A stretch of 64,000 bases of DNA from Vicinamibacterales bacterium (GCA_025456345.1 JALOKU010000002.1:70024-134023), one strand, 5' to 3'. Shown: positions 3,109-60,178, numbered from the stretch's first letter. Notes: generated by a model from the letters alone, not told the origin. Made by a program: numbers and translations.

Positions 3109-3210
3109 TCAGAAGCAAGAAGCCAGAAGGGCCCACTGTCGATTGTCAGAATCCGGAAGGCGATGTCAGCCGAACCGACCGCTCTTCTTGCTTCTGGCTC
3201 CTGGCTTCTC
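3109..3210 (-). repeat. heptamer-array inverted-repeat element, AGAAGCA flavour (reverse orientation)
   Basis: 3109-3152 is the reverse complement of the conserved module seen at 15351-15404, 58876-58929 and 60124-60178. 3183-3210 holds 4 units of TGCTTCT-type heptamers (tcttctt gcttctg gctcctg gcttctc). Lies between the HAD stop and the adk start. Confidence 0.85.
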
Positions 3211-3216
3211 GTCCGC

Positions 3217-4209
3217 TTACCTGTCGCCGCGGATAACCCCGAGCACTTCCTCGAACGACTCGCAGTAGTACTGGCAGAGCGGCCGCGTCCCGCTTTCGGG
3301 GATATTGCCGCCCGCCATGCCAATCGCGGCGAATCCCGCGAGCCGGACGGCGCACACCCCGGCGCCGCTGTCCTCGAGGCCGATCACGTGGTGACGGTCT
3401 TCGAAGGGGATGCCGAGGCCCACCCGGCAGACCTCCGCATAGAGCCACGGGTGCGGTTTCGGCGACAACTCGCCCAGCGTGCCTGGCTCGCCGGCGCGCA
3501 TCGGAAACCCCGCCGTCACGATCGCGTCGTAAAACGCCCGCGGGTCGCCCAGGCCCATGGTCCTGAACGCCGCCACCAGTTCCGGCCACGCCTTCTCGTA
3601 CAGACCGGAGGTCACCACGCCGACGCGGATGCCGTCCTGCTTCAGCGCCAGCAGGAACTCCCTGACGCCCGGGGCGGGCACGAAGGCATCCGCGCGGCCG
3701 CGGCCCGCGAGGATCTCCGCCATCTCGCGGCGCGCGTGTTCGAAGTAGAACGGCCGGGCTTCCTCGACGGTGCGGCCGGGACAGTACTTCCCGATGCAGT
3801 ACTGAAGGTGCTCCGACACGCTGAAGCCGGAGACGTACGGCAGGTCGCTCGCGTCGAGGGTGAACGACGGATCGCCGAGGAGGCTGCCCATCGTCTGCTC
3901 GATCATCCAGACCCAGAACGGCTCGCTTCGCACCGTGGTGCCGTCGAGGTCCATCAAGACGGCGCGCACGGGGCGTTCGATGGCGACCGGGTGGACGGGG
4001 TAGTAGGCTGGATAGCCGAGGGAAGAATTCACGAACGCCAGCGTGCGGTCGTCGAAGACCACGAACTCGACCCGCCGGTCCGCGGGCGTGAGCACGTGGC
4101 GCACGCCGTCGCGGCCCACGCGGAAGCGCCCGTCGCTGCACGCGTCGAGCGGCAGGAGGCCGGCCGTGCTCCGGATCACGCCGAGTCCGGGGAGGATGAG
4201 GTCCATCAT
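3217..4209 (-). CDS. HAD-superfamily hydrolase with about 85-aa N-terminal extension
   Basis: 330-aa ORF with the HAD motif I VLMDLDGTTV, later VVTSG and a GLEDSGAG-type motif. ATGA overlap with the lutC stop (4206-4209). Confidence 0.75.
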   Translation of the reverse strand: MMDLILPGLGVIRSTAGLLPLDACSDGRFRVGRDGVRHVLTPADRRVEFVVFDDRTLAFVNSSLGYPAYYPVHPVAIERPVRAVLMDLDGTTVRSEPFWVWMIEQTMGSLLGDPSFTLDASDLPYVSGFSVSEHLQYCIGKYCPGRTVEEARPFYFEHARREMAEILAGRGRADAFVPAPGVREFLLALKQDGIRVGVVTSGLYEKAWPELVAAFRTMGLGDPRAFYDAIVTAGFPMRAGEPGTLGELSPKPHPWLYAEVCRVGLGIPFEDRHHVIGLEDSGAGVCAVRLAGFAAIGMAGGNIPESGTRPLCQYYCESFEEVLGVIRGDR

Positions 4210-4892
4210 GCGGTGAAAATCACGTGCACGTGCTTCGGCCCGTGCACGCCGTGCGTCAGCGTCATCTCGATGTCCGCGGTGCGGCTGGGTCCCGCCACGA
4301 TCACCACGTTGCTGCCCGCATCGAGCAGGCGAGGCTCCTCGCGAAGAAGCGCCTCCAGCGAGGGCCGAAGTCGGCGCTGGTCGACGACGGCCACGTGCAC
4401 CGGCGGCAGCACCGACGCCAGCCGCCCGCGGCCCGGCCCGCCGACGAGAACCAGGCCGCCGTTGTCGGCGAGCGCGGCATGCGCGCCGGTCAGACCCAAC
4501 CCGACGCCGGCCAGCGCGTGCACGTCAGCGGCGCGCCGTTCCGGCTCGCCGCTGACATCATACGTGACGCGCTCCAGCCCGTGCGCCGCCAGCGCCGCCA
4601 GCAGGCCCGGGCAGCCGATGTGCGCGTCGTCCCAGCTGATGAACGACGCGGTTTGATGCGCGCCCGCGATCCCGGCGATGACGCGGGCCACGCCCTCGGT
4701 GCCGGCGGCGTGGTGCACGTGACCCGACAACGCCGTGAGCGCGGCAGAGAAGCGGTCGGCCATCTCACGCACCGAGGGCGGAGCCGGCGAGTCAGGCCGG
4801 CGCCTGGCCGCGCCGTTCGGCTCCGCGGGCAGACACGCCTTCAGCAGCCCGTCGCGAATCGAGCTCAGGATGCGCTCGCGGGGCGACGTCAT
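4206..4892 (-). CDS. lutC: lactate utilization protein C (LutC/YkgG family)
   Basis: 228 aa from the ATG at 4892 (MTSPRERILSSIRD...), with a LUD-domain-like C-terminus. The start overlaps the lutB stop (ATGA at 4889-4892). The upstream part of the 493-aa ORF is an Arg/Pro-rich shadow of lutB. Confidence 0.85.
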   Translation of the reverse strand: MTSPRERILSSIRDGLLKACLPAEPNGAARRRPDSPAPPSVREMADRFSAALTALSGHVHHAAGTEGVARVIAGIAGAHQTASFISWDDAHIGCPGLLAALAAHGLERVTYDVSGEPERRAADVHALAGVGLGLTGAHAALADNGGLVLVGGPGRGRLASVLPPVHVAVVDQRRLRPSLEALLREEPRLLDAGSNVVIVAGPSRTADIEMTLTHGVHGPKHVHVIFTA

Positions 4893-7073: not shown

Positions 7074-7083
7074 CAGAGGCCTG

Positions 7084-8151: not shown

Positions 8152-8196
8152 GAGGCTGTCTCCTGCTTTGGTAGGATAGCCTAACCTGAGGTACCG

Positions 8197-8937
<741 letters not shown>

Positions 8938-8948
8938 GGAGCACGGCC

Positions 8949-10787: not shown

Positions 10788-12919
10788 GGCCGCGTGTCGT
10801 CCTCGAGATCGTCCGCAAGGAGCTGACCGAGACGCTCCGGGACCGTCGCACGCTCATGCTGATGATCGCGCTGCCGGTGCTGATCTATCCGCTGCTCATG
10901 ATCGGGTTCAGCAAGCTCCAGGTGTCGCAGCTTGAAGCGACGGCGGAACGCACGTCGCGCATCGCGGTCTGGGGGGCGGCACCGGACGGTCTGCGCGAGG
11001 CGATCGTCGGCGACGGCAAGATCGCCATCGACGGCGGGATCCGGCCGTCCGATGCGGTGAAGAACGGGCTGGAGCAGGGGACGCTGACCAGGCCCGAGGT
11101 GGCGCCCCGTTCCGCTGGCGCGCGCCCGGGCGGGCAGGGCGCACGACAGGCGGCGGCGGGCCCGCCCGAGCCCGACAATCCTGTGCTCGAGGCTGCCCGA
11201 GCCGCGGTCGTCGAACGCCGGGCCGACGCGGTGCTCGTGCTGTGGCCGGATGTCGGGCCGGCGCTGGCCGCGGCCGGGGCCGGCAGCGTCTCCATCTACT
11301 TCGATTCGGTCCGGGAGGATTCCCTCGAAGCCCAATCGAGGCTCGAGTCCGCCCTCGGCGCCTACCGTGCCGGGCTGGTGGCGGAACGGGAGCGCGCGCA
11401 CGGCCTTGTCCGGGGCTTCGCGCTCGGCCTCGACGTCAGGGCGACCAACGTGGCCCGGGAGGCGCGGCGGTCGGGCCAGATCCTCGGCCTCTTCCTGCCG
11501 TTCCTCCTCGTGACGATGTCGCTGCTCGGCGGGTTCTACCCGGCCATCGATCTCACCGCCGGCGAGAAGGAGCGGGGCACGATGCAGACGCTGCTCTGCG
11601 CGCCCGTCAGCCCGCTCGAGATCGTCGCCGGCAAGTACCTCGCGGTCTGGGTCACGAGCCTGATCGCGGCCTTCGCCAACGTCGTGTCGCTCGGCATCAC
11701 GGTGATGCGCATCCTGCCTGGCGATGCGATCAGCGTGTCGCCCTCGACGCTGCTGCTGGCGTTCGCGATGCTCCTCCCGGTCACCCTGTTCATCACAGCC
11801 GTCTTCCTTGCGGTGGCCGCCTTCGCCAAGGACTTCAAGGACGGGCAGAACTTCCTCACGCCCGTTTACATGCTGCTCGCGATGCCGGCGGGCGTCACGA
11901 TGCTGCGGGGCATCGAACTCAACGCCTGGACGGCGTTCGTGCCGGTGGTGAACATCGCGCTGCTCATCAAGGCCCTCCTCATCTCGGAGGCCGCGCCCGA
12001 CCTCATCTTCCTGTCGCTGCTCTCGTCGACCGCCTACGCGGCGATGGCCGTGATGCTGGCCGCACGCGTCTTCGCCCGGGAGCAGGTGCTGCTCGGCGGG
12101 CGCGACTCGCTGCGGGCCCTCCTGGGGTTCGAGCGGCAGACCGGCGGGACGCCCTCGCCGGCGTTCGCGCTCACCGCTTTCGCGCTCGTGCTGGTGCTGG
12201 CCTTCTACGGGAGCCTGCTCCTGCAATCGGCCGGCACCATGGCCACCCTGCTGGTCACCGAGTTCGGGTTCTTTCTCGCTCCAACGCTGCTGCTCGTTGT
12301 CGGATTCGGGTTCTCGCTCACGCGGACGCTCTCCCTGCGGCGGCCCCCGCTCGCCGGCCTGGTCGCCGCAATACTCATCGGGTCGTCGGCGTGGGCCGTG
12401 GTTGCCGGTGGCCTCCTCCGGCTGCTGCCGCCTCCGGAGTCGCTGGTGCGCGCCCTCGAACAACTGCTGCTGCTCGACGGGGCGCCTGCGCCGCTCTGGC
12501 TCGTGTGGCTGGTCATCGGCGTCATTCCGGCGATGAGCGAAGAGTTGTTCTTCAGGGGCCTGGTGCTCTCGGGGCTGAGGCGCCTCGGCATGTGGCCCGC
12601 GCTCCTCACGTGCGCCCTGCTCTTCGCGCTGGCGCACAGCTCGGTCTACCGGCTGATCCCGACGTTCTTCATCGGCGTGTTGCTGTCGTGGCTGGTCTGG
12701 AAGACGGGATCGATCTGGACCAGCATCCTCGCGCACGCGCTGAACAACGGCATCGCGGCGACGCTGGTCTACAGCAAGCCGTTGGCCGCGGCCATCGGGG
12801 CGGGCACGCACGCCTACCTGGGCTGGAAGCCCACGCTGGCGGCCGTCGTCGTGCTGGCGGCCGGGTTGCTGGTGCTTCGGTACGTGCCGCCCGGAGTGGC
12901 CGACCCAGAGAAACAGTGA
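10784..12919 (+). CDS. ABC-2 type permease fused to CPBP (CAAX) intramembrane protease domain
   Basis: 711 aa. The N-terminal NatB-like permease has a large loop. The C-terminal part has CPBP motifs EELFFRG, FALAHS and ILAHALNN. The start overlaps the kinase-like stop (ATGA at 10784-10787). Confidence 0.85.
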   Translation: MRPRVVLEIVRKELTETLRDRRTLMLMIALPVLIYPLLMIGFSKLQVSQLEATAERTSRIAVWGAAPDGLREAIVGDGKIAIDGGIRPSDAVKNGLEQGTLTRPEVAPRSAGARPGGQGARQAAAGPPEPDNPVLEAARAAVVERRADAVLVLWPDVGPALAAAGAGSVSIYFDSVREDSLEAQSRLESALGAYRAGLVAERERAHGLVRGFALGLDVRATNVAREARRSGQILGLFLPFLLVTMSLLGGFYPAIDLTAGEKERGTMQTLLCAPVSPLEIVAGKYLAVWVTSLIAAFANVVSLGITVMRILPGDAISVSPSTLLLAFAMLLPVTLFITAVFLAVAAFAKDFKDGQNFLTPVYMLLAMPAGVTMLRGIELNAWTAFVPVVNIALLIKALLISEAAPDLIFLSLLSSTAYAAMAVMLAARVFAREQVLLGGRDSLRALLGFERQTGGTPSPAFALTAFALVLVLAFYGSLLLQSAGTMATLLVTEFGFFLAPTLLLVVGFGFSLTRTLSLRRPPLAGLVAAILIGSSAWAVVAGGLLRLLPPPESLVRALEQLLLLDGAPAPLWLVWLVIGVIPAMSEELFFRGLVLSGLRRLGMWPALLTCALLFALAHSSVYRLIPTFFIGVLLSWLVWKTGSIWTSILAHALNNGIAATLVYSKPLAAAIGAGTHAYLGWKPTLAAVVVLAAGLLVLRYVPPGVADPEKQ

Positions 12920-12932: not shown

Positions 12933-12974
12933 GAGGCGAGAGGCGAGAGGCGAGAGGCGAGAGGCGAGAGGCGA
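12933..12974 (+). repeat. tandem heptamer array (GAGGCGA)x6, perfect
   Basis: Six perfect 7-nt units read directly, starting 13 nt after the TGA stop at 12917-12919. Lies between convergent genes. Flanked by the inverted repeat GACAGGTCCCATT (12919-12931) / AATGGGATCTGTC (13047-13059). Confidence 0.95.
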
Positions 12975-13065
12975 GTCGGAGGCATACTGACCGCGCCCAG
13001 CCGCCGAAAAAAGTGCCAGGTCCCAGTTCCGCCCGCCCGGACGGGGAATGGGATCTGTCGTTCGT

Positions 13066-14070
13066 TCAGGCGATTTCGAGGACGATCTTCCCGAATTGAT
13101 CCGCGAGGTCCATCCTCCGGTGGGCGTCCGGCGCGGCCAGCAGCGGGAAGACCCGGTCCACGACGGGCACGATCGGGCCGTCGAAGAGCGCCAGCATCGC
13201 TGCAAATTCCGCGGGCGTGCCCATGGTGGTGCCGAGGATGCTGATCTGCTTCCAGAAGATCCGCCGGACTTCGACGGTGGACGGCGACCCGGTCGTCGCG
13301 CCGAACGTGACGACGCGCCCGCCCGGCTTGACGATGTCGAGCAGGGTCGAGAAGACACCACGTCCCGCGCTGTCGACGATGACGTCGGGGCCGCCCTCGG
13401 TGAGCGCCTGCACCTGTGTCCCCCACGCCTCGTCCGTGTAGTTGACGCCACCATCCGCTCCGAGTTGGCGGGCGCGGGCGATCTTGGCGTCGCTGCTCGA
13501 GGTGACGATCACGCGCGCGCCGAGGTGGCGTGCGACCAGGAGCGCGAGTGTGGCCACGCCGCCGCCGATGCCGGTGACAAGCACTGTCTCGCCGGGCAGG
13601 ACGCGCGCCCGGGTCACGATCGCGCGATAGGCCGTCAGGCCCGCCAGCGGAATGGCTGCCGCCGCCTCCCATGACAGCGCGGCTGGCTTGGCGAACAGGT
13701 TCTCGGCGGGGACCTTGACACGCTGCGCGTACGTGCCGTCGTCGGGCAGGCCGAGGATCTTGTACGACGGCCCCTGGACACGGGCATCGGCGCCCCAGCC
13801 GACACTGGGGTTGATGACCACCTGGCGTCCGAGCCATGCGGGGTCGACGCCGTCGCCGACCGCGGCCACCTCGCCCGCGCCATCGGAGCCGAGGATGACG
13901 GGCAGCCTGATGCCGGCGTACAGGCCCTTCCTGATCCAGGCATCGCGGTGGTTGAGCGCCGCCGCCCGCAGCGCCACGACGGCTTCGCCGGGACCCGGCT
14001 GAGGATCGCCGACCTGCTCCAGGACCAGCCCCTCGGGCCCGCCGAGTTCGCGCAGAACAATGGCTTTCAT
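13066..14070 (-). CDS. zinc-type alcohol dehydrogenase / quinone oxidoreductase family protein
   Basis: MKAIVLRELGGPEGL start at 14070, with MDR-family motifs (GSDGAGEV, VLVTGIGGGV). Confidence 0.85.
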   Translation of the reverse strand: MKAIVLRELGGPEGLVLEQVGDPQPGPGEAVVALRAAALNHRDAWIRKGLYAGIRLPVILGSDGAGEVAAVGDGVDPAWLGRQVVINPSVGWGADARVQGPSYKILGLPDDGTYAQRVKVPAENLFAKPAALSWEAAAAIPLAGLTAYRAIVTRARVLPGETVLVTGIGGGVATLALLVARHLGARVIVTSSSDAKIARARQLGADGGVNYTDEAWGTQVQALTEGGPDVIVDSAGRGVFSTLLDIVKPGGRVVTFGATTGSPSTVEVRRIFWKQISILGTTMGTPAEFAAMLALFDGPIVPVVDRVFPLLAAPDAHRRMDLADQFGKIVLEIA

Positions 14071-15288: not shown

Positions 15289-15404
15289 AGAAGCAAGAAG
15301 CAAGAAGCAAGAAGCAAGAAGCAAGAAGAAGCCTCACAGGTGCAGCGTGCCTGCTTCTGGCTTCTGACAATCGTCAGTTGGCCCTTCTGGCTTCTTGCTT
15401 CTGA
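15289..15404 (+). repeat. heptamer-array inverted-repeat element, AGAAGCA flavour
   Basis: (AGAAGCA)x5 perfect at 15289-15323 plus one degenerate unit, then a spacer and the conserved module 15351-15404 with the CTGAC-AATC-GTCAG mini-hairpin (15364-15377). Fills the gap between convergent genes. Confidence 0.95.
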
Positions 15405-27650: not shown

Positions 27651-28091
27651 CTACGTGAGAAGCGGCGCCGCCGCCGCGAGAAGCAGCCGCACGATCACCG
27701 CGATGGTGAGCGTGGTGCCGACCGTCGCCCAGAACCCTTGCGCGAGCGAGGTGTTCGCGATGAGCCCGGGCACGATGTAGCCCACGACCCGGAGGTCCGC
27801 GGGAGCCGGTGAGGACGCGAGCGCGAGGGTGTACAACCCGTGCAGGACGAAGCCGGTCAGGATCGTGACGCCGAACCGCCGGCGCCCGTACAGCACGACC
27901 ATCCGCATGAACCCGTAGCGCACGGCTGCGAAGGTCATCCCGCCGACGGCGATCGTCGCAAGCAATCGCGCCGGCTGGGTCAGGTGCAGGGCCAGATACC
28001 CTGGCACCACGAGGCCGCCCGACGTCAGTCCGAGCACTTCCGTGAAGAACAGGTTCAGCGCGATTCCGAGGCCGAGGGCGAGTTCCACCAT
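27651..28091 (-). CDS. pgsC: poly-gamma-glutamate biosynthesis membrane protein PgsC/CapC
   Basis: Small polytopic protein MVELALGLGIALNLFFTEVLGLTSGGLVVPGYLAL, typical of CapC. The ATG at 28091 is 1 nt after the pgsB stop. Confidence 0.85.
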   Translation of the reverse strand: MVELALGLGIALNLFFTEVLGLTSGGLVVPGYLALHLTQPARLLATIAVGGMTFAAVRYGFMRMVVLYGRRRFGVTILTGFVLHGLYTLALASSPAPADLRVVGYIVPGLIANTSLAQGFWATVGTTLTIAVIVRLLLAAAAPLLT

Positions 28092-28092
28092 G

Positions 28093-29235
28093 TCAGGCCT
28101 GCTGCAGCGCGGCGACAATGGCGTCGACGCGGATGCCTTTCGTGTTGCCGCAGAACACGACGACTTCGGGCGGCGCCACGCCGGTCAGGCGCCGGCGCAG
28201 CTCGGCCGCAACCGCCCGAGGCGGTGTGAACAACGCCCGCCCGCCCGGCAGGCCCGCCCGCAGCCGGCGCCAGGTCACCCAGTCGGGCCGGTCGCCCGTG
28301 ACGATGACCGCATCGCCGGACTGCGACCACGGGGCCGCCTCGCCGAACTGGCCGAGGCGGGCCGGGCGGTCCGCGCGGTGATGAAAGACGAACACCGCGC
28401 GATCGTGCCGCTCTCCGAGGATGAGCCCCAGCGACTGCGGATCGTTCGCGGCGGACGCATCGACATAGTCGACGCGGCGTCCCGCCACCTCGAGGCGGCC
28501 CGCGCGGAGCGCGCCCGGATCGGGGCGAGCCGCCAGCATCCCCCGGCGGGCGGCCTCCTCGCCGACGCCAAGCTCGCGAACCACGGCAAGGGCGATGCCG
28601 GCATTCTCGGCCATCCAGGGCCGGCCGGCCCACGCCTCCGGCTCTCCCTCGTCTGCCACGGCGTGCACGACACGGCTGCCGCGCGCCTGCGCGACGCGGG
28701 CCAGGATGTCGCTCCCGCCGGTTGGGCCCATGACGAGGATCGCTCGGCGCGGCACGGTCGCGCCAAGGGCCGCCGCCACTTCCTCGATCGTCGTGCCCAT
28801 CGCCTCCGCGTGATCGGGGCGCGCGTTGGTCACGACGCCAATCGTCGCCCGAATCATCTCGTCTTCACACACAGCCTGGAGTTCCGGGTCCACGGCCATG
28901 CACTCGATGACGACCGCCGCGGCCCGCAGCCGGTGCGCCTCGCGCAGCAGCCACAACTGTTCCTGGATGCTCGCTGGCGCGCGGCGGCGCACGGGCCGCT
29001 CGCCGCCATCGGGCAGGATGATCCGCGGCGCCGTGCCGGTGGTCTTGGCGACGGTCCGGATGCCCGCCTCGCGCAGGGCGGCGGCGATGAGCCGCGTGAC
29101 CGTGGATTTCCCGCGCGTGCCGTTCACGTGAATGCGGATCGGGATCGCGGCCAGCGCGCGGTCGCGCGCGCGCCGCTCCCACAGGAGCAGGGCCAGCAGG
29201 CCGGTGAGGAGCGCGGCAGCGATGATCAGGGCCAC
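28093..29235 (-). CDS. pgsB: poly-gamma-glutamate synthase PgsB/CapB (Mur-ligase family)
   Basis: N-terminal TM helix then IHVNGTRGKSTVTRL P-loop. Mur ligase-like middle domain (VVTNARPDH). Confidence 0.9.
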   Translation of the reverse strand: MALIIAAALLTGLLALLLWERRARDRALAAIPIRIHVNGTRGKSTVTRLIAAALREAGIRTVAKTTGTAPRIILPDGGERPVRRRAPASIQEQLWLLREAHRLRAAAVVIECMAVDPELQAVCEDEMIRATIGVVTNARPDHAEAMGTTIEEVAAALGATVPRRAILVMGPTGGSDILARVAQARGSRVVHAVADEGEPEAWAGRPWMAENAGIALAVVRELGVGEEAARRGMLAARPDPGALRAGRLEVAGRRVDYVDASAANDPQSLGLILGERHDRAVFVFHHRADRPARLGQFGEAAPWSQSGDAVIVTGDRPDWVTWRRLRAGLPGGRALFTPPRAVAAELRRRLTGVAPPEVVVFCGNTKGIRVDAIVAALQQA

Positions 29236-37297: not shown

Positions 37298-37326
37298 CGA
37301 GGGCCGGTTCTGAATACCGCTGTGGC

Positions 37327-37352
37327 GCGCGGCCGGCAGGCGCCGGCCGCGC
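37327..37352. terminator. strong GC hairpin between convergent genes (bidirectional terminator candidate)
   Basis: Perfect 11-bp stem GCGCGGCCGGC / GCCGGCCGCGC with a 4-nt loop AGGC. No U-tract. Confidence 0.45.
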
Positions 37353-37401
37353 CGCTCAGCACCCCCGGCGAATCAGCGGTGTGCACCCGCGGCACGGGCG
37401 G

Positions 37402-38961: not shown

Positions 38962-40062
38962 ATGCGTTCTCAGGTGGTGACGCTCGTCGTGGTCGCGCTC
39001 GTGGGGCTGGCGGTGCCGGGCGAGACGCGGGCCCCGGCCGTCATGGGCACGCTGGCGGCCGAGCAGCCACCGCTGCCGGCCGCGGTGAGCCAGCTGCCCG
39101 CCAGCTTCACCGGCGACCTGCCGTGCGCCGACTGCGAGGGCATTCGCTACCGCCTCAATCTGTTTCCCGACGGGGCTTTCTACCTCGGCATGACGTACCT
39201 CGGGAAGGGAGACGGCGCAGCCTTTGACGATATCGGCACCTGGATGCTGTCGAGCAATCGGCAGGTGCTGGTGCTGAAGGGCGGACGCGAGGCCTCGACC
39301 CTCTTTCGGATCGTCAACGCGAAGACGCTCCGCAAGCTCGACCTCGAGGGGCGCGACATCGAGTCGGCCCTGCCCTATGCGATTACGCGGACAGCGGCGT
39401 TCGAGCGACTGGAACCGAAGCTGCCGATGCGCGGGATGTTCCGCTACATGGCAGATGCGGGGCTCTTCACGGAGTGCTCGACCGGGCAGCGCTGGCCGGT
39501 GGCCCAGGAGGCCGACAACGCCACCCTCGAGCGTGAGTACTCGAAGGTCCGGAAGGACCCTGGCGGCCCGGTGCTGGTGGGCGTCGAGGGGCGGATCGCC
39601 ATGCGGCCGAAGATGGAAGGGCCGGGCCTGGAGCCGGCGCTCGTGCCCGAGCGGTTCGTTGGCGCGTTTCCGGGCGAGGCCTGCGGCCCTCGCCCCGCGC
39701 CGGCGGCGCTCGACGGCGCGTCCTGGACGCTCACGCGCCTGGATGATGTCGCCGTCGTGCCGACCACCCAGCCGCGAGAGGTGTTTCTCGCTTTCGACCT
39801 GAACGCCATGCGCGTCTCGGGGTCGGGCGGCTGCAACCGGATTACGGGCTCCTTCACCCGCGCCGCGATCGACGGAATCACCGTCGGACTCATGGCGGGC
39901 ACGAGGATGGCCTGCGCGGACGGCATGGAGGTCGAGGCCGCCTTCCTGAAGGCGCTGTCCCACGTCAGGACATACAACATCCTCGGGACGATCCTCGAGA
40001 TGTACGACGCGGCCGGGACGCTCGTCGCCAGGTTCGAGGCACGGGCGGCGGCTGCGAAGTAG
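38962..40062 (+). CDS. secreted protein with NlpE N-terminal-like domain and META (HslJ-like) domain
   Basis: Signal peptide. GDLPCADCEGIRYRL resembles the NlpE/CutF N-domain CxxC segment. The C-terminal ASWTLTRLDD...GGCNRITGSF resembles a META domain. Confidence 0.7.
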   Translation: MRSQVVTLVVVALVGLAVPGETRAPAVMGTLAAEQPPLPAAVSQLPASFTGDLPCADCEGIRYRLNLFPDGAFYLGMTYLGKGDGAAFDDIGTWMLSSNRQVLVLKGGREASTLFRIVNAKTLRKLDLEGRDIESALPYAITRTAAFERLEPKLPMRGMFRYMADAGLFTECSTGQRWPVAQEADNATLEREYSKVRKDPGGPVLVGVEGRIAMRPKMEGPGLEPALVPERFVGAFPGEACGPRPAPAALDGASWTLTRLDDVAVVPTTQPREVFLAFDLNAMRVSGSGGCNRITGSFTRAAIDGITVGLMAGTRMACADGMEVEAAFLKALSHVRTYNILGTILEMYDAAGTLVARFEARAAAAK

Positions 40063-40128
40063 AAGCCGGACTCCCGTCTTCTTGCGTCTGACCGTCGCCA
40101 GCGGGCCCTTCTGACTTCTTGCTTCTAG
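40059..40128 (+). repeat. degenerate AGAAGCA-flavour element (module only, no long array)
   Basis: gTAGAAGCCGG...CGTCTGACCGTCGCCAGCGGGCCCTTCTGACTTCTTGCTTCTAG aligns with the conserved module of the family. Begins on the TAG stop at 40060-40062. Confidence 0.7.
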
Positions 40129-41044: not shown

Positions 41045-41062
41045 CCGCTCTCGGAAGGACCT

Positions 41063-41094
41063 CGGGGGCGGCGCGCCGCAGCGTGCCACCCCCG
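41063..41094. terminator. GC-rich hairpin between convergent rhomboid and pepD genes
   Basis: CGGGGG (41063-41068) pairs with CCCCCG (41089-41094). Inner 6-bp stem 41070-41075 / 41082-41087 with a 6-nt loop. Hand-folded. Confidence 0.4.
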
Positions 41095-41097
41095 TCC

Positions 41098-41130
41098 GGC
41101 TAGCCCCTAGCGCCTAGCCCCTAGTCCCTA
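41098..41130. repeat. heptamer array, AGCCCCT/CTAG flavour (about 5 units), one arm
   Basis: ggctagc ccctagc gcctagc ccctagt ccctac. On the minus strand the first unit is the TAG stop codon of pepD (41128-41130). Confidence 0.85.
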
Positions 41131-42582: not shown

Positions 42583-42628
42583 AAGACCGGCTCCTTTGTC
42601 AGGCGGGGCAGCATGAATGTACCACACC

Positions 42629-42749
42629 AGGGGCTAGGGGCTGGGCGCTGGGCGCTAGTCAGCCCGGCCGTCACGCCGGCACGTCACCCATGCGGCGATA
42701 GCCGCATCCGACTAGCCCCTAGCCCCCAGTCCCTAGCCCCTACTAGAAT
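42629..42749. repeat. heptamer-array inverted-repeat element, AGGGGCT/AGCCCCT flavour, in divergent promoter region
   Basis: Left arm aggggct aggggct gggcgct gggcgct (42629-42656). Core with hairpin ATGCGGC-GATA-GCCGCAT (42690-42707). Right arm agcccct agccccc agtccct agcccct (42714-42741) running into TAGAAT. Confidence 0.9.
42744..42749 (+). promoter_or_regulatory. candidate -10 element TAGAAT, 6 nt upstream of the aminopeptidase ATG (possible leaderless mRNA)
   Basis: TAGAAT-GCCCCA-ATG with no SD between. The block CTA(C/G)TAGAATGCCCC recurs at 47253-47266. Confidence 0.4.
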
Positions 42750-43718: not shown

Positions 43719-43736
43719 CGGCGATGACCGACCGGC

Positions 43737-43835
43737 AGTAGTAAGTAGCCAGTAGCCAGTATTCAGTAGGAATGCCAGTCGCACCGCACGGTGTCCCACG
43801 GCTACTGGCACTGGCTACTGGTTATTGGCTACTGA
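43737..43835. repeat. heptamer-array inverted-repeat element, AGTAGCC flavour
   Basis: Left arm agtagta agtagcc agtagcc agtattc agtagga (43737-43771), a 28-nt core, then right arm ggctact ggcact ggctact ggttatt ggctact (43800-43833). Confidence 0.9.
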
Positions 43836-45925: not shown

Positions 45926-47080
45926 ATGCCTCACCGGATGGGGATGTTTCTTTCCGCCGTCGTGATCGCGGTCCTGATCGCCGGGCCCGCCGCCGGGCAG
46001 GCGAAGCCCGCCAAGCCCGCTGCCGCACCGCCGCCGCTGTTCACCACGCCGCTCGCGCTCGAGCAGATGCGCGGGAAGCAGGCCGTCATCGAAACGACGG
46101 CCGGGCGCATCGTGCTCGATCTGTTGCCGGACAAGGCGCCAAACCACGTGGGCTACCTCATCAAGCTGGCCCGGGAGGGCGCCTACAACGGCACGACCTT
46201 CCACCGCCTGATCAAGCACGGCATCATCCAGGGCGGCGACCCGCTCTCGAAGGACCCGGCGAAGACGGCCCAGTACGGCACCGGCGGTCTCAAGATGGTG
46301 GCGTTCGAGCCGGGAGAGGGCAGCCACGTTCGCGGGGCCGTGTCGGCCGTGCTCGTCCCCGGCAACCGCGACAGCGCGGGTTCGCAGTTCTTCATCTGCG
46401 TGACGCCGCAGCCCCCGCTCGACGGGCACTACACCGTGTTCGCCCGCGTCGTCGAGGGGATCGGCATCGTGACGCAGATCTCCGAAGCGCCGGTCGACGC
46501 GGCCGGGAAGGCCACGGATCGGATTGAGATGACGTCAGTCACGATCCGCGACGCGCCGCCGGCTGGCGTTGTCCCGTTCGCGGCGGACTCGCCGGCGGAC
46601 CTGGCCAGGTACCGCGCGGTCCTCGAAACGAGCCTGGGCAACATCACCATGGAGTTCCTGCCGGAGAAGGCGCCGACCCACGTGCGCAACTTCCTGAGGC
46701 TCGCCTCCGCGGGCGTGTACGACCGCACGGCCTTTCATCGTGTCGTGCCAGGCTTCATGGTGCAGACTGGGTACCTCGGTTCGAAGCAGCTCGTCATGGA
46801 TGAGGCACAGCAGAAGCTGGTCGGCACCCTGCAGCCCGAGTTCAACGACACGGTCCACGACAAGGGCATCGTGTCGATGGCCCGAGGCGAGGATCCGGCC
46901 AGCGCCAGCACCTCGTTCTTCATCGTCACCGCACGCGTGGCCTCGCTTGACGGCACCTACACCGCCTTCGGCCGCGTCGTCGACGGGATGAGCGTCGTCG
47001 AGGCCATCGAGCAGGTGCCGAGGGACGGAGAGGCACCGCGGACGCGCGTGGAACTCATCCGCGTTCGAATCAGTAGATAG
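45926..47080 (+). CDS. secreted tandem-domain cyclophilin-type peptidyl-prolyl cis-trans isomerase
   Basis: Signal peptide then two cyclophilin repeats (FHRLIKHGIIQGGDP...SAGSQFFI and FHRVVPGFMVQTG...STSFFIV). Confidence 0.9.
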   Translation: MPHRMGMFLSAVVIAVLIAGPAAGQAKPAKPAAAPPPLFTTPLALEQMRGKQAVIETTAGRIVLDLLPDKAPNHVGYLIKLAREGAYNGTTFHRLIKHGIIQGGDPLSKDPAKTAQYGTGGLKMVAFEPGEGSHVRGAVSAVLVPGNRDSAGSQFFICVTPQPPLDGHYTVFARVVEGIGIVTQISEAPVDAAGKATDRIEMTSVTIRDAPPAGVVPFAADSPADLARYRAVLETSLGNITMEFLPEKAPTHVRNFLRLASAGVYDRTAFHRVVPGFMVQTGYLGSKQLVMDEAQQKLVGTLQPEFNDTVHDKGIVSMARGEDPASASTSFFIVTARVASLDGTYTAFGRVVDGMSVVEAIEQVPRDGEAPRTRVELIRVRISR

Positions 47081-47170
47081 TAGCCAGTAGTCAGTAGCCA
47101 GTAGGGCGGGACGCCCTACAGTGCACTGGCCTTTCTACTGAATACTGGCTACTGGCTACTTACTACTGAC
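47072..47170. repeat. heptamer-array inverted-repeat element, AGTAGCC flavour
   Basis: Left arm agtagat agtagcc agtagtc agtagcc agtaggg (47072-47106) includes the last two codons and the TAG stop of the PPIase gene. Core palindrome TAGGGCG-GGA-CGCCCTA. The right arm 47135-47168 is the exact reverse complement of 43736-43769 (34 nt). Confidence 0.95.
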
Positions 47171-47186
47171 AGCCTTGGGCTGCGCC

Positions 47187-47261
47187 CCGAACCCCGAACT
47201 CCGACCCCCCGAGTCCCGGATCCCGACTGACTAGCGCCTAGCGCCTAGCCCCTAGTAGAAT
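47187..47261 (+). repeat. degenerate 7-nt periodic array (CCGAACC type grading into GCCTAGC type) ending in TAGAAT
   Basis: ccgaacc ccgaact ccgaccc cccgagt cccggat cccgact gactagc gcctagc gcctagc ccctagt, then TAGAAT (47256-47261). Confidence 0.8.
47256..47261 (+). promoter_or_regulatory. candidate -10 element TAGAAT upstream of the molybdenum hydroxylase operon
   Basis: CCTAGTAGAATGCCCCC, near-identical to the block at 42738-42754. GGAGG at 47276-47280 and ATG at 47286. Confidence 0.4.
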
Positions 47262-47285: not shown

Positions 47286-47924
47286 ATGGATCACGAGGAC
47301 AGAGACAAATCCGCAGCGGCGACAGGAGGCGTCAGTCGCCGCGGATTCATCACGTCGGTCGGCTCCGGAGCCATCGGCGTGGCGGCGGCGAGCGCACTCG
47401 TGCAGGGCGCGCCGCCACAGGCCCAGGCCGAGGCCGTCAAAGCCGGCGAGGTGAGCCCCATCGCGCTCACCGTCAACGGGCGCACGCACAAGCTGCTGGT
47501 CGAGGCCCGCTGGTCGCTGCTCCACGTCCTGCGCGACCACCTCGGCCTGACCGGGACCAAGGTCGGGTGCGAGCGCGGTGAATGCGGGGCCTGCACGGTG
47601 CTCATCGACGGCAAGGCCCGCTACGCCTGCATGACGCTCGCGGTGGAAGCCGACGGGCACGACATCACGACGGTGGAAGGGCTCATGTCCGGAGAGGAAC
47701 TGGGGCCGACGCAGCGCGCGTTCGCCGAGGAAGATGCCTTCCAGTGCGGCTACTGCACGCCGGGCCAGGTGATGGCGGCCGAGGGCCTGCTGCGCGCGAA
47801 CCCGTCGCCCGATCTCGACCAGATCCGCCACGGCATGGCGGGCAACATCTGCCGGTGCGGGGCGTACGCCCACATCTTCAAGGCCGTCGCGAAGGCGGCC
47901 GATCTGAAGCGGCAGGGGAGGTGA
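47286..47924 (+). CDS. (2Fe-2S)-binding small subunit of xanthine dehydrogenase-family molybdoenzyme, Tat signal (PaoA-like)
   Basis: Twin-arginine leader VSRRGFITSVGSGA. CERGECGACTV and CGYCTPG cluster motifs. Confidence 0.9.
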   Translation: MDHEDRDKSAAATGGVSRRGFITSVGSGAIGVAAASALVQGAPPQAQAEAVKAGEVSPIALTVNGRTHKLLVEARWSLLHVLRDHLGLTGTKVGCERGECGACTVLIDGKARYACMTLAVEADGHDITTVEGLMSGEELGPTQRAFAEEDAFQCGYCTPGQVMAAEGLLRANPSPDLDQIRHGMAGNICRCGAYAHIFKAVAKAADLKRQGR

Positions 47925-56388: not shown

Positions 56389-57082
56389 TCCACGCCACGA
56401 TCCGATCCTGGGCCGCGGCGTTGACGTCTGCCTGACGCAGGCCCGACCGCTTCGGCACCTCGAGCGAGTGGTTGCCCTGCTCGACGGTGTAGATCTCGCA
56501 CGGAGCATCCAGCACGTCGAAGAACAGCCGCAACTCAGCCGCCGTCCCGAACGCATCCCTGGCGCCTTGCACCACGAGCATCGGGTGGTTGATGTGCGGC
56601 AGGTGCGACACACGAACCTGCTGCGGCTTACCGGGAGGGTGAAGCGGATAGCCCAGGAACACGAGGCCGCGCAGCCGGTCCCACCACGCCTCGGTCACGG
56701 CGTCGCCGACGTCGCGGGCCGCCGCGAGGTGCGAGGCCATCCGGCCGCCGAGGGACTTGCCGCCGATGAAGAGGGGACGCGAGCCGCCGGCGGCATCGGC
56801 TACGACGTCGGCGAGGACGGCCCGGTAGCACGCCTCCAGCACCGGCTGCGGGTCGGGCAGCTTCTTGCCGCGCTCGGTGAACGGAAAATTGAACGTCACC
56901 ACGTCGAGTCCGCGGGCGGCGAGGCCGGTGGCAAATCCCACCATGAATTCGCTCGACTGGCCGGCACCGGCCCCATGGGCGAGCACCAGGGTAGCCAGGG
57001 GCGATGGGCCGCCTCCGTAGCGCCTGGCAGTCACCGAGGCGCCCCGGTCGAGTGCCACCCGTCGCTCGTCCACCATCGTCAT
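56336..57082 (-). CDS. alpha/beta hydrolase (dienelactone hydrolase/KANL3-like)
   Basis: ATG at 57082 (alternative 57076). LVLAHGAGAG, nucleophile elbow GGKSLGGR, later VQGARD and GNH. The 3' end overlaps the convergent TRAP permease by 53 nt. Confidence 0.8.
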   Translation of the reverse strand: MTMVDERRVALDRGASVTARRYGGGPSPLATLVLAHGAGAGQSSEFMVGFATGLAARGLDVVTFNFPFTERGKKLPDPQPVLEACYRAVLADVVADAAGGSRPLFIGGKSLGGRMASHLAAARDVGDAVTEAWWDRLRGLVFLGYPLHPPGKPQQVRVSHLPHINHPMLVVQGARDAFGTAAELRLFFDVLDAPCEIYTVEQGNHSLEVPKRSGLRQADVNAAAQDRIVAWITECLGSATGGRTRRSP

Positions 57083-57124
57083 TCCCTTGAGTCCGCCGCC
57101 CACACAGCTTAGGCTAGATGGACC

Positions 57125-58801
57125 ATGGCAGCGCAATACATCTTCACGATGAAGGGTCTCGGCAAGGTCTATCCACCGGACCAGACCGTGCTCAAGGACA
57201 TCTGGCTCTCGTTCCTCCCGGGGGCGAAAATCGGCGTGCTCGGGCTGAACGGCGCCGGGAAGAGCACCATTCTCAAGGTGATGGCCGGGATCGAAAAGGA
57301 GTTCCTGGGCGAGGCCTTCCCGGCCGACGGCATCAGCATCGGTTTCCTTCCCCAGGAGCCCGCGCTGGACCCATCGAAGACGGTGCTCGGCAACGTCGAA
57401 GAGGGGGTGGCGGGGACCAAGGCGCTGCTCGCGCGGTATGACGAGCTGAACGGGAAGCTGGGAGAACCGCTGGATCCCGACGAGATGGAAAAGGTCCTCG
57501 ACGAGCTCGGCAAGCTCCAGGATCGCATCGACGCTGTGGGCGCCTGGGAGCTGGACTCGAAGCTGGAACTGGCGATGGACGCCCTCCGGTGCCCGCCTCC
57601 TGACGCCGACGTGCGGACTCTCTCGGGCGGGGAGCGGCGCCGCGTGGCGCTGTGCCGGCTCCTCCTGCAATCGCCCGGCCTGCTGCTCCTCGACGAGCCC
57701 ACGAACCACCTCGACGCGGAGTCTGTGGAGTGGCTCGAGCACTTCCTGAAGGACTACCCGGGCACGGTGGTGGCGGTCACGCACGACCGGTATTTCCTGG
57801 ACAACGTGGCGGGCTGGATCCTGGAACTCGATCGCGGCTCGGGCATTCCGTGGCAGGGCAACTACACGTCCTGGCTCGAGCAGAAGCAGAAGCGCCTCGA
57901 GGTCGAAGAGAAACAGGAAGCGCGGCGCCAGCGGACGCTCCAGCGCGAGCTGGACTGGATCCGGATGTCGCCGCGCGCCAGGCAGGCGAAAGGGAAGGCC
58001 CGCCTGAACGCCTACGAGGCGATGCTGTCGGAGGAGACCGCCCAGCGCATCGAGACCGCCGAGATCTACATTCCGCCGGGCCCCCGCCTGGGCGACGTCG
58101 TCGTCGAGGCGCGGAGCCTGCGCAAGGGCTACGGCGACGTCCTCCTCATGGACGAGGTGACCTTCACGCTTCCGCGCGGCGGCATCGTGGGCGTCATCGG
58201 GCCCAACGGCGCGGGCAAGACGACGCTCTTCCGGATGATCACCGGGCAGGAGCAACCCGATGGCGGCACGCTTCGCCTCGGGGAAACCGTCCAGGTCGGA
58301 TACGTGGACCAGTCGCGCGACGCGCTCGACCCCGACAAGTCCGTCTGGCAGGAGATTTCTGACGGCCGCGACGAGGTGATGCTCGGCAAACGTGAAGTCG
58401 CGTCGCGGGCCTACGTGTCGTGGTTCAACTTCAAGGGCCGCGACCAGCAGCGCAAAGTGGGCTCGCTCTCCGGCGGCGAGCGCAACCGGGTGCACCTCGC
58501 CAAGCTCCTCAAGCGCGGCTGCAACCTGCTGCTGCTCGACGAGCCGACCAACGATCTCGACGTCGACACGCTGCGGGCCCTCGAGGATGCCATCCTCGCC
58601 TTTGCCGGCTGCGTCGTGGTCATCAGCCACGACCGCTGGTTCCTCGACCGCATCAGTACGCACATACTCGCCTTTGAAGGCGACAGCCAGGTGGAGTGGT
58701 TCGCAGGGAACTACCAGGACTACGAGGCCGACCGCCACCGCCGGCTGGGCACGGAGGCCGACCGGCCGCACCGGATCAAATACAGGAAGCTGACAAGATA
58801 G
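57125..58801 (+). CDS. ettA: energy-dependent translational throttle ABC-F protein EttA
   Basis: [18 protein letters not shown] start, two ABC cassettes ([18 protein letters not shown]). 558 aa with full-length EttA pattern. Confidence 0.95.
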
Positions 58802-58929
58802 AAGCAAGAAGCAAGAAGCAAGAAGCAAGAAGCAAGAAGCAAGAAGCAAGAAGATCCCCCGCAGCTGCAGCGTGCCTGCTTCTGGATTCTGACAACCGTC
58901 AGTGGGCCCTTCTGGCTTCTTGCTTCTGA
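58800..58929 (+). repeat. heptamer-array inverted-repeat element, AGAAGCA flavour (best-preserved copy)
   Basis: (AGAAGCA)x7 perfect at 58800-58848 plus one degenerate unit. The first unit overlaps the ettA TAG stop. A spacer with TGCAGCGTGCC is followed by the conserved module 58876-58929 with the CTGAC-AACC-GTCAG mini-hairpin (58889-58902). Confidence 0.95.
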
Positions 58930-58967
58930 CAGCTGCCGGTTCCCGAGCCTCGGGCCGGCGACCGTCA

Positions 58968-58973
58968 TATAAT
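58968..58973 (+). promoter_or_regulatory. candidate -10 element TATAAT upstream of the epimerase gene
   Basis: gtcaTATAATcc, 44 nt before the ATG at 59018. Confidence 0.3.
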
Positions 58974-59017
58974 CCTTACGTCCTCGCCCCCGCGGGCACA
59001 TTCATTCCGAGGGATTC

Positions 59018-60040
59018 ATGCTGAGACGACCAGGGATTCTGATTACCGGTGCCAGCGGCGAGATCGGCCACGGCCTGATTTCGCGCCTTGCCCAGGACCG
59101 CTCCACGCCCATTGTCACGCTCGATGTCAGGAACCTGGAGCCGGACCTCGGCAAGATGGTCCACCGGGAGATCATCGGGTCCATCACCGATCCGGCCGCC
59201 CTTGACCGCATCCTGGCCGAGTTCGACATCGACCACGTCTATCACCTCGCGGCCTATCTCTCGACGCGCAGCGAGTTCACGCCGGTCACGGCCCACGAGG
59301 TGAACGTCGAGGGCACGATGAACCTGCTCGAGTTCGCCCAGAAGCAGGGCGAGTCTCACGGGCGGCCGGTCGTCTTCCTCTATCCGTCCTCGATTGCCGC
59401 TTACGGCCTGCCAGACCTCGAAACCAAGGCCAAGGCCGGCAAGGTGCGTGAGGAGGAGTTCAACACGCCGACGACGATGTACGGGTGCAACAAGCTCTAC
59501 TGCGAGTTGCTTGGGCGTTACTACGCTCGCCACTACAAACAGCTGTCGGCGGAGCCGCTCTCCGGCAAGGTGGATTTCCGCGCCGTCCGCTTCCCGGGGC
59601 TCATTTCCGCCGTCACGGTTCCCTCTGGCGGCACCTCCGACTACGCCCCGGAGATGATTCACGCCGCCGCCAAGGGAGAGGCTTACGCCTGCTTTGTCCG
59701 GCCCGATACCCGCATTCCCTTCATGGCGATGCCCGACGGCGTCGAGGTCCTGCTGAAGCTGGCGTATGCGCCGCGCGAGCGCCTGTCGAAGACGGCCTAC
59801 AACGTGGGCGCGTTCAATCCGTCGGCGGAGGAGGTCCGGCACATCGTGCTCGAGAGCTTCCCGGGCGCCAACCTCACCTACGCCAACGACGTGAAACGCC
59901 AGGGCATCGTCGATTCCTGGCCCGGCGACGTCAACGACTCGGCGGCGCGGGCCGACTGGGGCTGGGCGCCCCAGTACGACTTCCGCCGCGCGTTCTCGGA
60001 GTACCTGATTCCGATGATCAGGGAGCGATACGCGAAATAG
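59018..60040 (+). CDS. NAD-dependent epimerase/dehydratase family protein (extended SDR, L-threonine 3-dehydrogenase-like)
   Basis: ILITGASGEIGHGL Rossmann motif and catalytic YGCNK (YxxxK). 340 aa. Confidence 0.85.
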   Translation: MLRRPGILITGASGEIGHGLISRLAQDRSTPIVTLDVRNLEPDLGKMVHREIIGSITDPAALDRILAEFDIDHVYHLAAYLSTRSEFTPVTAHEVNVEGTMNLLEFAQKQGESHGRPVVFLYPSSIAAYGLPDLETKAKAGKVREEEFNTPTTMYGCNKLYCELLGRYYARHYKQLSAEPLSGKVDFRAVRFPGLISAVTVPSGGTSDYAPEMIHAAAKGEAYACFVRPDTRIPFMAMPDGVEVLLKLAYAPRERLSKTAYNVGAFNPSAEEVRHIVLESFPGANLTYANDVKRQGIVDSWPGDVNDSAARADWGWAPQYDFRRAFSEYLIPMIRERYAK

Positions 60041-60041
60041 A

Positions 60042-60178
60042 AGAAGCAAGAAGCAAGAAGCAAGAAGCAAGATGCAAGAAGCAAGAAGCAAGAAGCAAGA
60101 AGAACTCCCGCTGGTGCAGATTGTCTTCTTCTGGCTTCTGACAATCGTCAGAGGGCTCTTCTGGCTTCTTGCTTCTGA
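60042..60178 (+). repeat. heptamer-array inverted-repeat element, AGAAGCA flavour
   Basis: Nine units at 60042-60104 (7 perfect AGAAGCA, one AGATGCA, one AGAAGAA), starting 1 nt after the TAG stop. The conserved module 60124-60178 ends 3 nt before the next ORF. Confidence 0.95.

Follow-up and report, generated by a model that had tools for sequence, protein, structure and literature searches.

Tandem arrays of heptanucleotides in intergenic DNA are known from a few bacterial groups. Mazel et al. reportedly described, in 1990, the heptanucleotide short tandemly repeated repetitive (STRR) sequences of heterocystous cyanobacteria. In two Xanthomonas genomes with 65% GC, Rehm et al. (2015; PMC4692102) found 186 and 183 loci of GGGAATC-type heptamers, 89-93% of them intergenic, with 70-75 convergent inverted pairs. 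The Xanthomonas arrays lie near stop codons and are rare between divergent genes, their sites are kept while length and sequence vary by species, and no function was found for them (PMC4692102). A suggestion by Mrázek, as cited in that paper, is that 7 nt corresponds to the DNA segment held in the polymerase active site. A further example is the TAACTGA intergenic arrays of Beggiatoaceae, Cyanobacteria and Bacteroidetes (MacGregor 2015; PMC4679880). Here we analyse a 64,000-nt stretch of DNA (the window; ~70% GC) from a Vicinamibacterales bacterium of the phylum Acidobacteriota (GCA_025456345.1, JALOKU010000002.1:70024-134023), with eleven heptamer loci between positions 3,109 and 60,178, and show that its intergenic DNA has been colonised by heptamer simple sequence repeats (SSRs) of the STRR and GGGAATC kind.

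Tandem Repeats Finder (TRF), run on the window, reported period-7 arrays at all eleven loci listed in an earlier note on this DNA except 40059-40128, a degenerate copy below the TRF threshold that was recognised by eye. There are 17 period-7 rows (starting at 3111; 12933; 15289 and 15384; 41100; 42629 and 42712; 43736 and 43800; 47071 and 47135; 47185 and 47231; 58800 and 58909; 60041 and 60158), compared with 3.58 ± 1.88 (maximum 9) in 100 dinucleotide-preserving shuffles, and the best score is 117 against a shuffle maximum of 42. Perfect self-match runs number nine at period 7 and zero to two at each other period from 4 to 12. TRF distinguishes eight canonical units, and its perfect runs include AGAAGCA × 7.7 (58800-58853) and AGAGGCG × 6.1 (12933-12975), which bear out the seven and six perfect copies counted earlier. 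On a gene map that combines Pfam scans with the gene calls of matching public contigs, the genome is 94.5% coding and intergenic DNA makes up 5.5% of the window; 544 of the 559 array bases fall within it, and the other 15 reach into the final codons or the stop of three genes. The arrays are thus intergenic, as had been proposed, and not equally common in coding DNA. Together the eleven loci sum to 1,024 nt, or ~29% of the window's intergenic DNA. By a tally on the same map, 14 intergenic regions of 80 nt or more follow a stop and 9 of them hold arrays, as against one of five divergent ones; the functions of the adjoining genes fall into unrelated classes. The 24-kb tract 16000-40000 is free of heptamer arrays despite several intergenic regions of 100-200 nt, and none of the eleven loci is inside it.

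The likeness to the Xanthomonas GGGAATC loci is extensive: a high-GC genome, 7-nt tandem units, ~90% intergenic location, inverted pairs able to form stem-loops, placement within tens of nucleotides downstream of a stop or, on the antisense strand, ahead of starts, rarity between divergent genes, and retention of sites with variation in length and sequence. The present loci differ in phylum, in their units and in a dominant A-rich class (AGWAGNN) that is incapable of forming G-quadruplexes; the four-G-tract unit of the Xanthomonas class is represented here only by the GGGGCTA type, AGAAGCA, AGTAGCC and AGAGGCG having no G-tracts. Moreover, coexisting unit types (flavours) replace each other here, one flavour is combined with conserved non-repeat modules, and stop codons lie inside terminal units. 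With the cyanobacterial STRRs the window shares several families of tandem heptamers dispersed in non-coding DNA. The unit CCCCAAT of the related Acidobacteriota locus L042 is one that we take to be of STRR1 type, and (AGAAGCA)3 also occurs in Microcoleus and Okeania genomes among the matches listed. Taxon and GC content differ, and inverted-arm hairpins and tight coupling to stops do not define STRRs. The closest protein homologues and the loci bearing the module described below belong to Acidobacteriota or Vicinamibacterales metagenome-assembled genomes (MAGs) and not to heterocystous cyanobacteria, so the arrays are not STRRs in the strict sense. Small dispersed repeats nested in Nostoc heptamers, reportedly described by Elhai et al. 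in 2008, offer a parallel that we do not use as evidence.

Other intergenic repeats resemble the arrays less closely. Like them, the TAACTGA repeats are abundant intergenic heptamers, patchy across phyla, with a proposed post-transcriptional role, but they are direct repeats just upstream of starts, with one indirect case in 170 sets, whereas the arrays here are mostly inverted and lie downstream of stops (PMC4679880). The repetitive extragenic palindromes (REPs), bacterial interspersed mosaic elements (BIMEs) and REP doublets forming hairpins (REPINs) of Enterobacteria and Pseudomonas, and the pneumococcal BOX elements, are also dispersed extragenic palindromes that form stem-loops in 3' untranslated or intercistronic mRNA; BOX is likewise modular, its internal units varying in number. 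Liang et al. reportedly found, in 2015, that a REP lying within 15 nt of a stop affects translation termination. In contrast to REPs and REPINs, the arms here are heptamer arrays of variable length instead of a fixed 20-40-nt palindrome, and they have no consistent GTAG head, the base before TAG being variable at element ends. Tandem organisation, non-coding bias, several units, length variation and placement all assign the arrays to the heptanucleotide SSR class. The earlier note knew of nothing similar in a high-GC genome; that claim of novelty was overstated, since intergenic heptamers, including inverted pairs near stops, are published for Xanthomonas, at 65% GC (PMC4692102), and for cyanobacteria. 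New here are the phylum (we found no description of heptamer repeats in Acidobacteriota in the literature), a dispersed AGAAGCN element with a 28-nt module, and TAG stops embedded in element ends.

Near-identical variants of the region are present in four Joint Genome Institute (JGI) metagenomes and in a second MAG. In these strain assemblies the flanking proteins are identical and intergenic lengths differ by multiples of 7. The array at 15289 has 5.7 or 13.7 units (13.7 in L008), that at 58800 has 4.7, 6.7, 7.7 or 10.7, and at 60041 the array length changes by -28, -14 and +35 nt. The imperfect AGTAGCC array at 43737 varies by ±1 unit, and its right arm (43800) is homogenised in L001, with four perfect GGCTACT units where the window has variants. 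Perfect AGAAGCA arrays vary most; imperfect G/C-rich arrays are invariant, and so is the perfect (AGAGGCG)6 (12933-12975, the same in five strain assemblies). One assembly, L002, is without a 30-nt block, GACAATCGTCAGAGGGCTCTTCTGGCTTCT, between direct CTTCTGGCTTCT repeats (orthologous to window 60136-60165), either by deletion of a conserved module or by assembly collapse. The arrays thus gain and lose 7-nt units quickly. Classical phase variation was considered and is unlikely: the arrays follow stops and lie upstream of promoters or start regions, so a change in unit number alters neither reading frame nor promoter spacing.

Over longer distances it is the unit itself that changes. We followed the block of ABC-F, epimerase and adenine deaminase genes through homologues of falling identity (given below for the epimerase protein relative to the window). 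After the ABC-F stop the window has an AGAAGCA composite element (58800-58928). At this site L253 (93%) has an AGTAGYC hairpin whose (GGCTACT)9 arm abuts the -10 box, L254 (89%) an AGAAGAC arm only, L256 and L258 (87%) a single arm of (AGTAGAC/GGTAGAC)n, L249 (86%) inverted arrays of GGGGCAC type, and L250 (81%) a hairpin of (GTGAGTT)n and (AACTCAC)n; the outgroup L251 (80%) has 45 repeat-free nucleotides and a TAA stop. Arrays thus follow the ABC-F stop in seven of the eight lineages with kept gene order, four times as hairpins. That stop is TAG in every lineage with repeats at the site; beyond the repeats comes a conserved -10 box, CATATAAT, which in L250 reads TAGAAT. The site after the epimerase stop is occupied by a composite element, by an AGTAGNC or a GGTAGAC hairpin or by a single (GCAGTAG)n arm, or it has no repeat, as in L250, L254 and L251, the last with a spacer of 3 nt. 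In L253 (1221-1245) the epimerase reading frame runs five codons into the AGTAGNC array until a later TAG, giving 345 instead of 340 aa, and the array thus encodes C-terminal residues of the enzyme.

Orthologous hairpins of these relatives fold with z-scores of -5.1, -6.1, -3.9, -3.4 and -2.0, and both arms share one flavour in every hairpin. The hairpin thus survives while its two arms change in step, the strongest evidence for either selection on structure or a mechanism that copies one arm from the other. Since AGAAGCA, AGAAGAC, AGTAGAC or AGTAGCC stands at the same site in relatives with 87-93% identical epimerases, the flavour at one site, judged from these orthologues, drifts, for example from AGAAGCA through AGAAGAC and AGTAGAC to AGTAGCC. 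The earlier proposal of one family in concerted change therefore holds for the A-rich flavours, through turnover at orthologous sites and through mixed arrays, and its support extends to these flavours only.

The mixed arrays join AGAAGCA to AGAGGCA and AGAGGCG (L143, L150, L231), and in L231 an AGAAG-type element has an (AGAGGCG)n left arm. The A-rich flavours are accordingly not independent simple repeats, as the earlier note had maintained; A-rich units (AGWAGNN) form one loose mutational network and G-rich units (GGGGCNN) another. Its more specific description, four flavours in a common phase AG-NN-GC-N, fared less well. Four unit groups of the window do fit, but CCCCGAA (47185-47209), inside the listed locus 47187-47261, does not, nor do the G-rich 7-periodic tracts at 3068-3104 and 13017-13057. 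A scan of a genome collection for (AGAAGCA)3 gave at least 119 loci, those listed coming from Vicinamibacterales and other Acidobacteriota MAGs, a Hydrogenedentota MAG, Microcoleus, Okeania and Flavobacterium. In 14 Acidobacteriota loci among the matches listed, TRF reported 72 rows at period 7 and 10 each at periods 6 and 8, with 31 distinct units. With the search pattern AGAAGCA excluded, 4 of the 30 further units (13%) fit the phase, against 7.6% expected by chance; those that do not include GGGGCGT, CGGGGCT, CACGGTT, GAACCGC, GCCGATA, CCCCAAT and AGAAGAC. We therefore rejected AG-NN-GC-N as a general rule; a larger set without the conserved phase is one of the outcomes that the earlier note itself had named as a refutation.

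Several further features of these related loci deserve mention. Arrays of an 8-mer (TCACGCTG) and a 14-mer (AGCACGATACACGA) stand directly beside (AGAAGCA)3 in L052 and L019 (Vicinamibacterales MAG CAYNDV01), so period 7 is dominant and not exclusive. The Hydrogenedentota MAG314 (~36% GC; L015, L058, L059, L082, L117, L124) has a dispersed composite of another kind, present on at least six contigs, in which (AGAAGCA)3 is followed by CAGGCTA, AAAAGCC and GTCTTGA heptamer arrays. Contigs of related MAGs begin or end within heptamer arrays (L014:20-41, L040:1-42, L044:1-21, L057:37-57), and L019 has a run of N inside one; with contig ends and gaps exactly at arrays, the repeats appear to break short-read assemblies.

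One flavour is more than an array. The AGAAGCN elements contain two conserved parts, a 15-nt apical loop CNACCGGTGCAGCKT and a 28-nt module TTCTGACAATCGTCAGNGGGCCCTTCTG; the module pattern TTCTGACAAYCGWCAGNKGGCYCTTCTG has four copies in the window where none is expected, and a fifth, degenerate copy at 40085. A metagenome scan with this pattern matched at least 120 contigs. Those listed represent 116 distinct contexts, mostly from wetland and freshwater sediment samples, and the module is also present in other Acidobacteriota MAGs, including Vicinamibacterales. The order of parts is constant, namely stop codon, (AGAAGNN)n, loop, CTTCTGGC, module and GCTTCTTGCTTCTGA, with the loop being either the conserved CNACCGGTGCAGCKT or a separate small hairpin and the module at times tandemly repeated. 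The predicted fold is a three-way junction of an outer stem, an apical stem and a side hairpin, CUGACAAUCGUCAG. In seven lineages among the matches listed the element lies between rpoA and rplQ (confirmed by Pfam). The AGAAGCN subset is therefore a true dispersed repeat family, and with a conserved, non-repetitive loop and module it can have spread only by copying.

The composite elements are tightly coupled to gene ends. In 62 of them with an identifiable upstream open reading frame (ORF; here and below among the matches listed), the distance from stop to first unit is mostly -5 to 0 nt and 48 (77%) of these stops are TAG; the sense codons just before the stop often resemble array units (AAG AAG). 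The downstream gene could be determined for 76 elements and is convergent in 39, its stop standing at a median distance of 2 nt from the right arm. This stop is TAG in 29 of the 39 cases (74%), often inside ...GCTTCTA. More generally, 72% of ORFs preceding AGWAG units end in TAG against 39% of others (odds ratio 4.0, p = 2e-6, for loci that are not fully independent). The element may bring the TAG, may target it, or only insertions that promptly end the ORF may survive. The 39% background, taken from ORFs without AGWAG repeats (window, L129-L248, long ORFs with high GC at third codon positions), itself seems high for a 70%-GC genome, and may reflect other TAG-containing flavours or errors of crude ORF calls.

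The G/C-rich flavours are placed as in Xanthomonas: past a stop the mRNA carries the G-rich strand, and ahead of a start the sense strand is C-rich. Such C-rich arms precede four starts (42756 and 47286, and on the minus strand 42582 and 3055), and a -10-like box, TAGAAT, TACATT or TACGAT, comes after each arm. Such boxes (TAGAAT, CATATAAT) directly follow repeat arms at 42744-42749, 47256-47261 and 58962-58969, and the same boxes recur upstream of the epimerase gene in L249, L250 and L253-L258. We identified the TAGAAT and TATAAT boxes by eye and found them conserved across orthologues; a sigma-70 promoter scan found no -35/-10 pair near the arrays and no -35 element. Some boxes lie only 6-30 nt from the start codon, suggesting very short leaders or leaderless mRNAs in this clade.

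Most loci were expected by the earlier note to fold as hairpins with inverted arms, and 8 of the 11 do fold clearly better than their shuffles, seven through inverted arms. The strongest folds, with z-scores of -8.5, -5.7 and -6.9, start at 42625, 43719 and 47066 (the G/C-rich and AGTAGCC loci). Values from -2.5 to -2.9 were obtained at 3105 (minus strand), 15275, 41045 (minus strand), 58799 and 60038, that is, at the AGAAGCA loci and at 41045, whose stability comes mainly from a GC hairpin not built of heptamers. There is no significant fold at the single-arm arrays 12920 and 47176 or at 40057, the degenerate copy (z -0.1 to -0.7). A search of the whole window against Rfam gave no match at the gathering threshold, and E-value mode yielded only chance-level matches to generic hairpins (E 0.13 to 0.89). 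Hairpin ('I-shaped') terminators without a U-tract have been reported for high-GC Actinobacteria. They too place a stable stem-loop right after the stop, but as a unique GC-rich stem, whereas the arms here are built of repeats and a terminator role is putative. Ordinary GC-rich hairpins without a U-tract also occur in repeat-free intergenic regions of the window, and lie between convergent genes at 41060-41098 and 37320-37360, so plain and repeat-built stem-loops occupy the same kind of position.

Along the window, the reversed composite AGAAGCN element at 3109-3210 (minus strand; module at 3124-3151; z -2.5) has a purine arm that begins 7 nt past the TAA stop (3217-3219) of a minus-strand HAD hydrolase gene. 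Next to it, a roughly 7-periodic tract (3068-3104, minus), C-rich on the sense strand and G-rich on the plus strand, was read directly from the sequence; it closely precedes the start of the adenylate kinase gene (3055, minus), and the -10-like TACGAT comes after it. The perfect, single-armed (AGAGGCG)6.1 array (12933-12975, plus; TRF; no significant fold) begins 13 nt past the TGA stop (12917-12919) of an ABC-2 permease gene, between convergent genes. A small hairpin at 13017-13057 (plus), with two GGGAAT-type heptamers per arm (CAGGTCC CAGTTCC ... GGGGAAT GGGATCT), borders on the stop, at 13066, of a convergent alcohol dehydrogenase gene. The composite at 15289-15404 (plus; z -2.6), made up of (AGAAGCA)5.7, loop, module (15362-15389) and CTTCTGGCTTCTTGCTTCT, begins 14 nt past the URO-D stop, also between convergent genes. 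In the degenerate composite at 40059-40128 (plus; read by eye; fold not significant), the TAG stop of an NlpE-like gene (40060-40062) lies within the first unit. On the minus strand, (AGGGGCT)4.4 (41100-41130, on the mRNA strand; TRF; z -2.9, mostly from the GC hairpin) directly follows and overlaps the TAG stop (41128-41130) of an M20 peptidase gene; it is G-quadruplex-capable by motif and is followed by the ordinary GC hairpin between convergent genes.

The inverted AGGGGCT/AGCCCCT arrays at 42629-42749 (unstranded; TRF; z -8.5) form a long hairpin that separates the starts of two divergent peptidase genes, M20 (42582, minus) and M29 (42756, plus); both genes have a C-rich arm upstream on the sense strand, with TAGAAT at 42744-42749. 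Two AGTAGCC/GGCTACT hairpins follow on the plus strand, both found by TRF. The one at 43736-43834 (z -5.7) begins 17 nt past the TGA stop of the M29 peptidase gene; a PPIase gene ends inside the first units of the other (47071-47170; z -6.9), with its final three codons and its TAG stop (47078-47080). Beyond it TRF places the single arm (CCCCGAA)3.6 (47185-47209, plus; not AG-NN-GC-N) and (CTAGCGC/CTAGCCC)3.6 followed by TAGAAT (47231-47261, plus), 24 nt upstream of a ferredoxin-subunit start at 47286. Of the last two composites (both plus; TRF), that at 58800-58928, with a perfect (AGAAGCA)7.7 and its module at 58887-58914 (z -2.6), takes its first AG from the TAG stop (58799-58801) of the ABC-F gene, and the conserved -10 box of the epimerase gene, CATATAAT, lies downstream. 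The other (60041-60177; (AAGAAGC)8.9; module 60136-60163; z -2.7) directly follows the TAG stop (60038-60040) of the epimerase gene and ends 14 nt before the adenine deaminase ATG (60192). Unrelated to the repeats, adjacent minus-strand genes at 27651-29235 have Pfam matches to CapC and to a Mur-ligase middle domain, possibly for poly-gamma-glutamate synthesis of the CapB/CapC type.

We favour, at a probability of roughly 0.6, a joint explanation in which heptamer SSRs undergo concerted turnover of flavour, one flavour has become the dispersed AGAAGCN family, and the elements serve as stem-loops at mRNA 3' ends. Unit variants spread through an array, so that the flavour of a site drifts, as the orthologous sites show; replication slippage would drive the change in copy number, and intrastrand template switching between arms would keep them complementary. 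Immediately 3' of stops, the elements would be transcribed with the upstream gene and fold into long stem-loops, which would probably impede 3' exonucleases or, lacking a U-tract, cause partial termination, separating or buffering neighbouring cistrons.

A number of points weigh against this explanation. The 3'-end role, in our judgement probably the most likely one, is inferred from position and folding, and three loci are single-armed or lack a significant fold. RNAalifold, applied to 25 composite apical regions, returned no consensus structure. In a hand-drawn composite stem 78.6% of positions pair against 79.0% in shuffles, with covariation not above column composition; the proposed register is clearly the best among registers, though without covariation, so the pairing is explicable by conserved inverted repeats alone. 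Structural support sits instead at the level of whole arrays, in the different unit pairs at orthologous sites. Templating at the DNA level would match the arms without any selection on RNA. A scan of the window found no U-tract after the full hairpins, as a canonical terminator would have, but only sub-hairpins, each followed by the pyrimidine arm itself. Between rpoA and rplQ, which are co-transcribed in most bacteria and normally form a single operon, the element cannot be a full terminator. Finally, the explanation offers no reason for the preference for period 7.

Could the repeats do nothing at all? A lineage-specific bias to 7-nt slippage, together with copying of a non-autonomous element, might leave neutral or selfish by-products that survive where they are harmless, a few bases after stops. 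Copy number is polymorphic without visible consequence, flavours turn over freely, and L251 is repeat-free at both sites of the ABC-F block (L250 and L254 at the epimerase stop). The missing covariation, the unrelated functions of neighbouring genes and the Xanthomonas analogue, likewise with no function found, point the same way. Even so, seven of eight lineages keep heptamer arrays after the ABC-F stop through complete sequence turnover, four as hairpins, the element persists in the highly expressed rpoA-rplQ spacer of seven lineages among the matches listed, and repeats fill 29% of very scarce intergenic DNA. We regard such a neutral or selfish origin as possible though doubtful.

An element resembling a miniature inverted-repeat transposable element (MITE) or a REPIN, its arms being terminal inverted repeats recognised by a transposase and its insertion targeting or regenerating TAG at gene ends, would explain why a non-repetitive loop and module are conserved in more than 100 contexts and several MAG lineages. 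The terminal inverted repeats, T(C)AGAAGC...GCTTCT(G)A, and the excess of TAG at both upstream and convergent stops agree with it. No target-site duplication was seen in the 116 contexts among the matches listed or in comparisons of filled with empty sites, the empty sites being too diverged (80-81% protein identity) for boundaries to be defined, and Pfam annotation of the window's genes revealed neither a transposase nor a REP-associated tyrosine transposase (RAYT). The TAG/CTA termini track the adjacent gene and not each other. For the same reason, and because most right ends read CTGAC, we rejected a TA target-site duplication of the mariner-like MITE type (ends TA-G...C-TA). Since the other flavours share the architecture without conserved sequence, transposition cannot explain the whole phenomenon, and we hold this origin to be unlikely.

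For the G/C-rich flavours only, the arrays might act as G-quadruplex, i-motif or promoter-associated elements, as proposed for Xanthomonas, and not as hairpins. GGGGCTA repeats meet the quadruplex motif (four G-tracts, 3-nt loops), C-rich arms stand on the sense strand upstream of the four starts beside -10-like boxes, and past the M20 peptidase stop the mRNA carries the G-rich strand, a placement rule shared with Xanthomonas (PMC4692102). The two-armed hairpin would compete, being very stable (-83.6 kcal/mol, z -8.5), and the promoter scan, with no sigma-70-type -35/-10 pair, speaks against the promoter variant. Judged from motif and position, such roles seem rather improbable. Least probable by far is a periodic code, also raised in the earlier note, in which a protein or RNA-binding factor reads the 7-nt register of arrays serving as multi-site platforms: four of about six window unit groups fit AG-NN-GC-N (an estimated chance of ~5e-4 for independent units) and the composite's apical loop is conserved in sequence, but the window's fitting units are linked by descent via mixed arrays, the phase is lost in the larger unit set, orthologous sites carry units that share no positions (GTGAGTT, GGGGCAC), and copy number at one site ranges from ~4 to 14.

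Extending the joint explanation, AGWAGNN hairpins could form a lineage-wide cassette of stop codon plus stem-loop. Their termini (T-AGAAGC...GCTTCT-A) would supply or capture the TAG of flanking genes, the hairpin would be the default 3' end or terminator, and the whole would be renewed by copying in a 7-nt register, a process shared with cyanobacteria, Bacteroidota, Xanthomonas and Hydrogenedentota. We offer this as speculation with long odds against it; if true, it would tie the definition of gene ends to a self-renewing repeat and offer an approach to the long-standing question of why long bacterial SSRs prefer heptamers. In practical terms, the arrays appear to interrupt metagenome assemblies, since several contigs of relatives end in them, their polymorphism in copy number is a possible strain marker, and TAG stops embedded in array ends affect the annotation of gene ends. 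For the biology of these repeats, the window adds Acidobacteriota, a major phylum of soils and wetlands, to the few groups with intergenic heptamers, a recognised puzzle. Graded relatives with different units at the same site, together with a repeat-free outgroup, allow the origin, turnover and arm matching of such arrays to be studied directly, and comparison across phyla makes the hypothesis of a 7-nt polymerase footprint testable.

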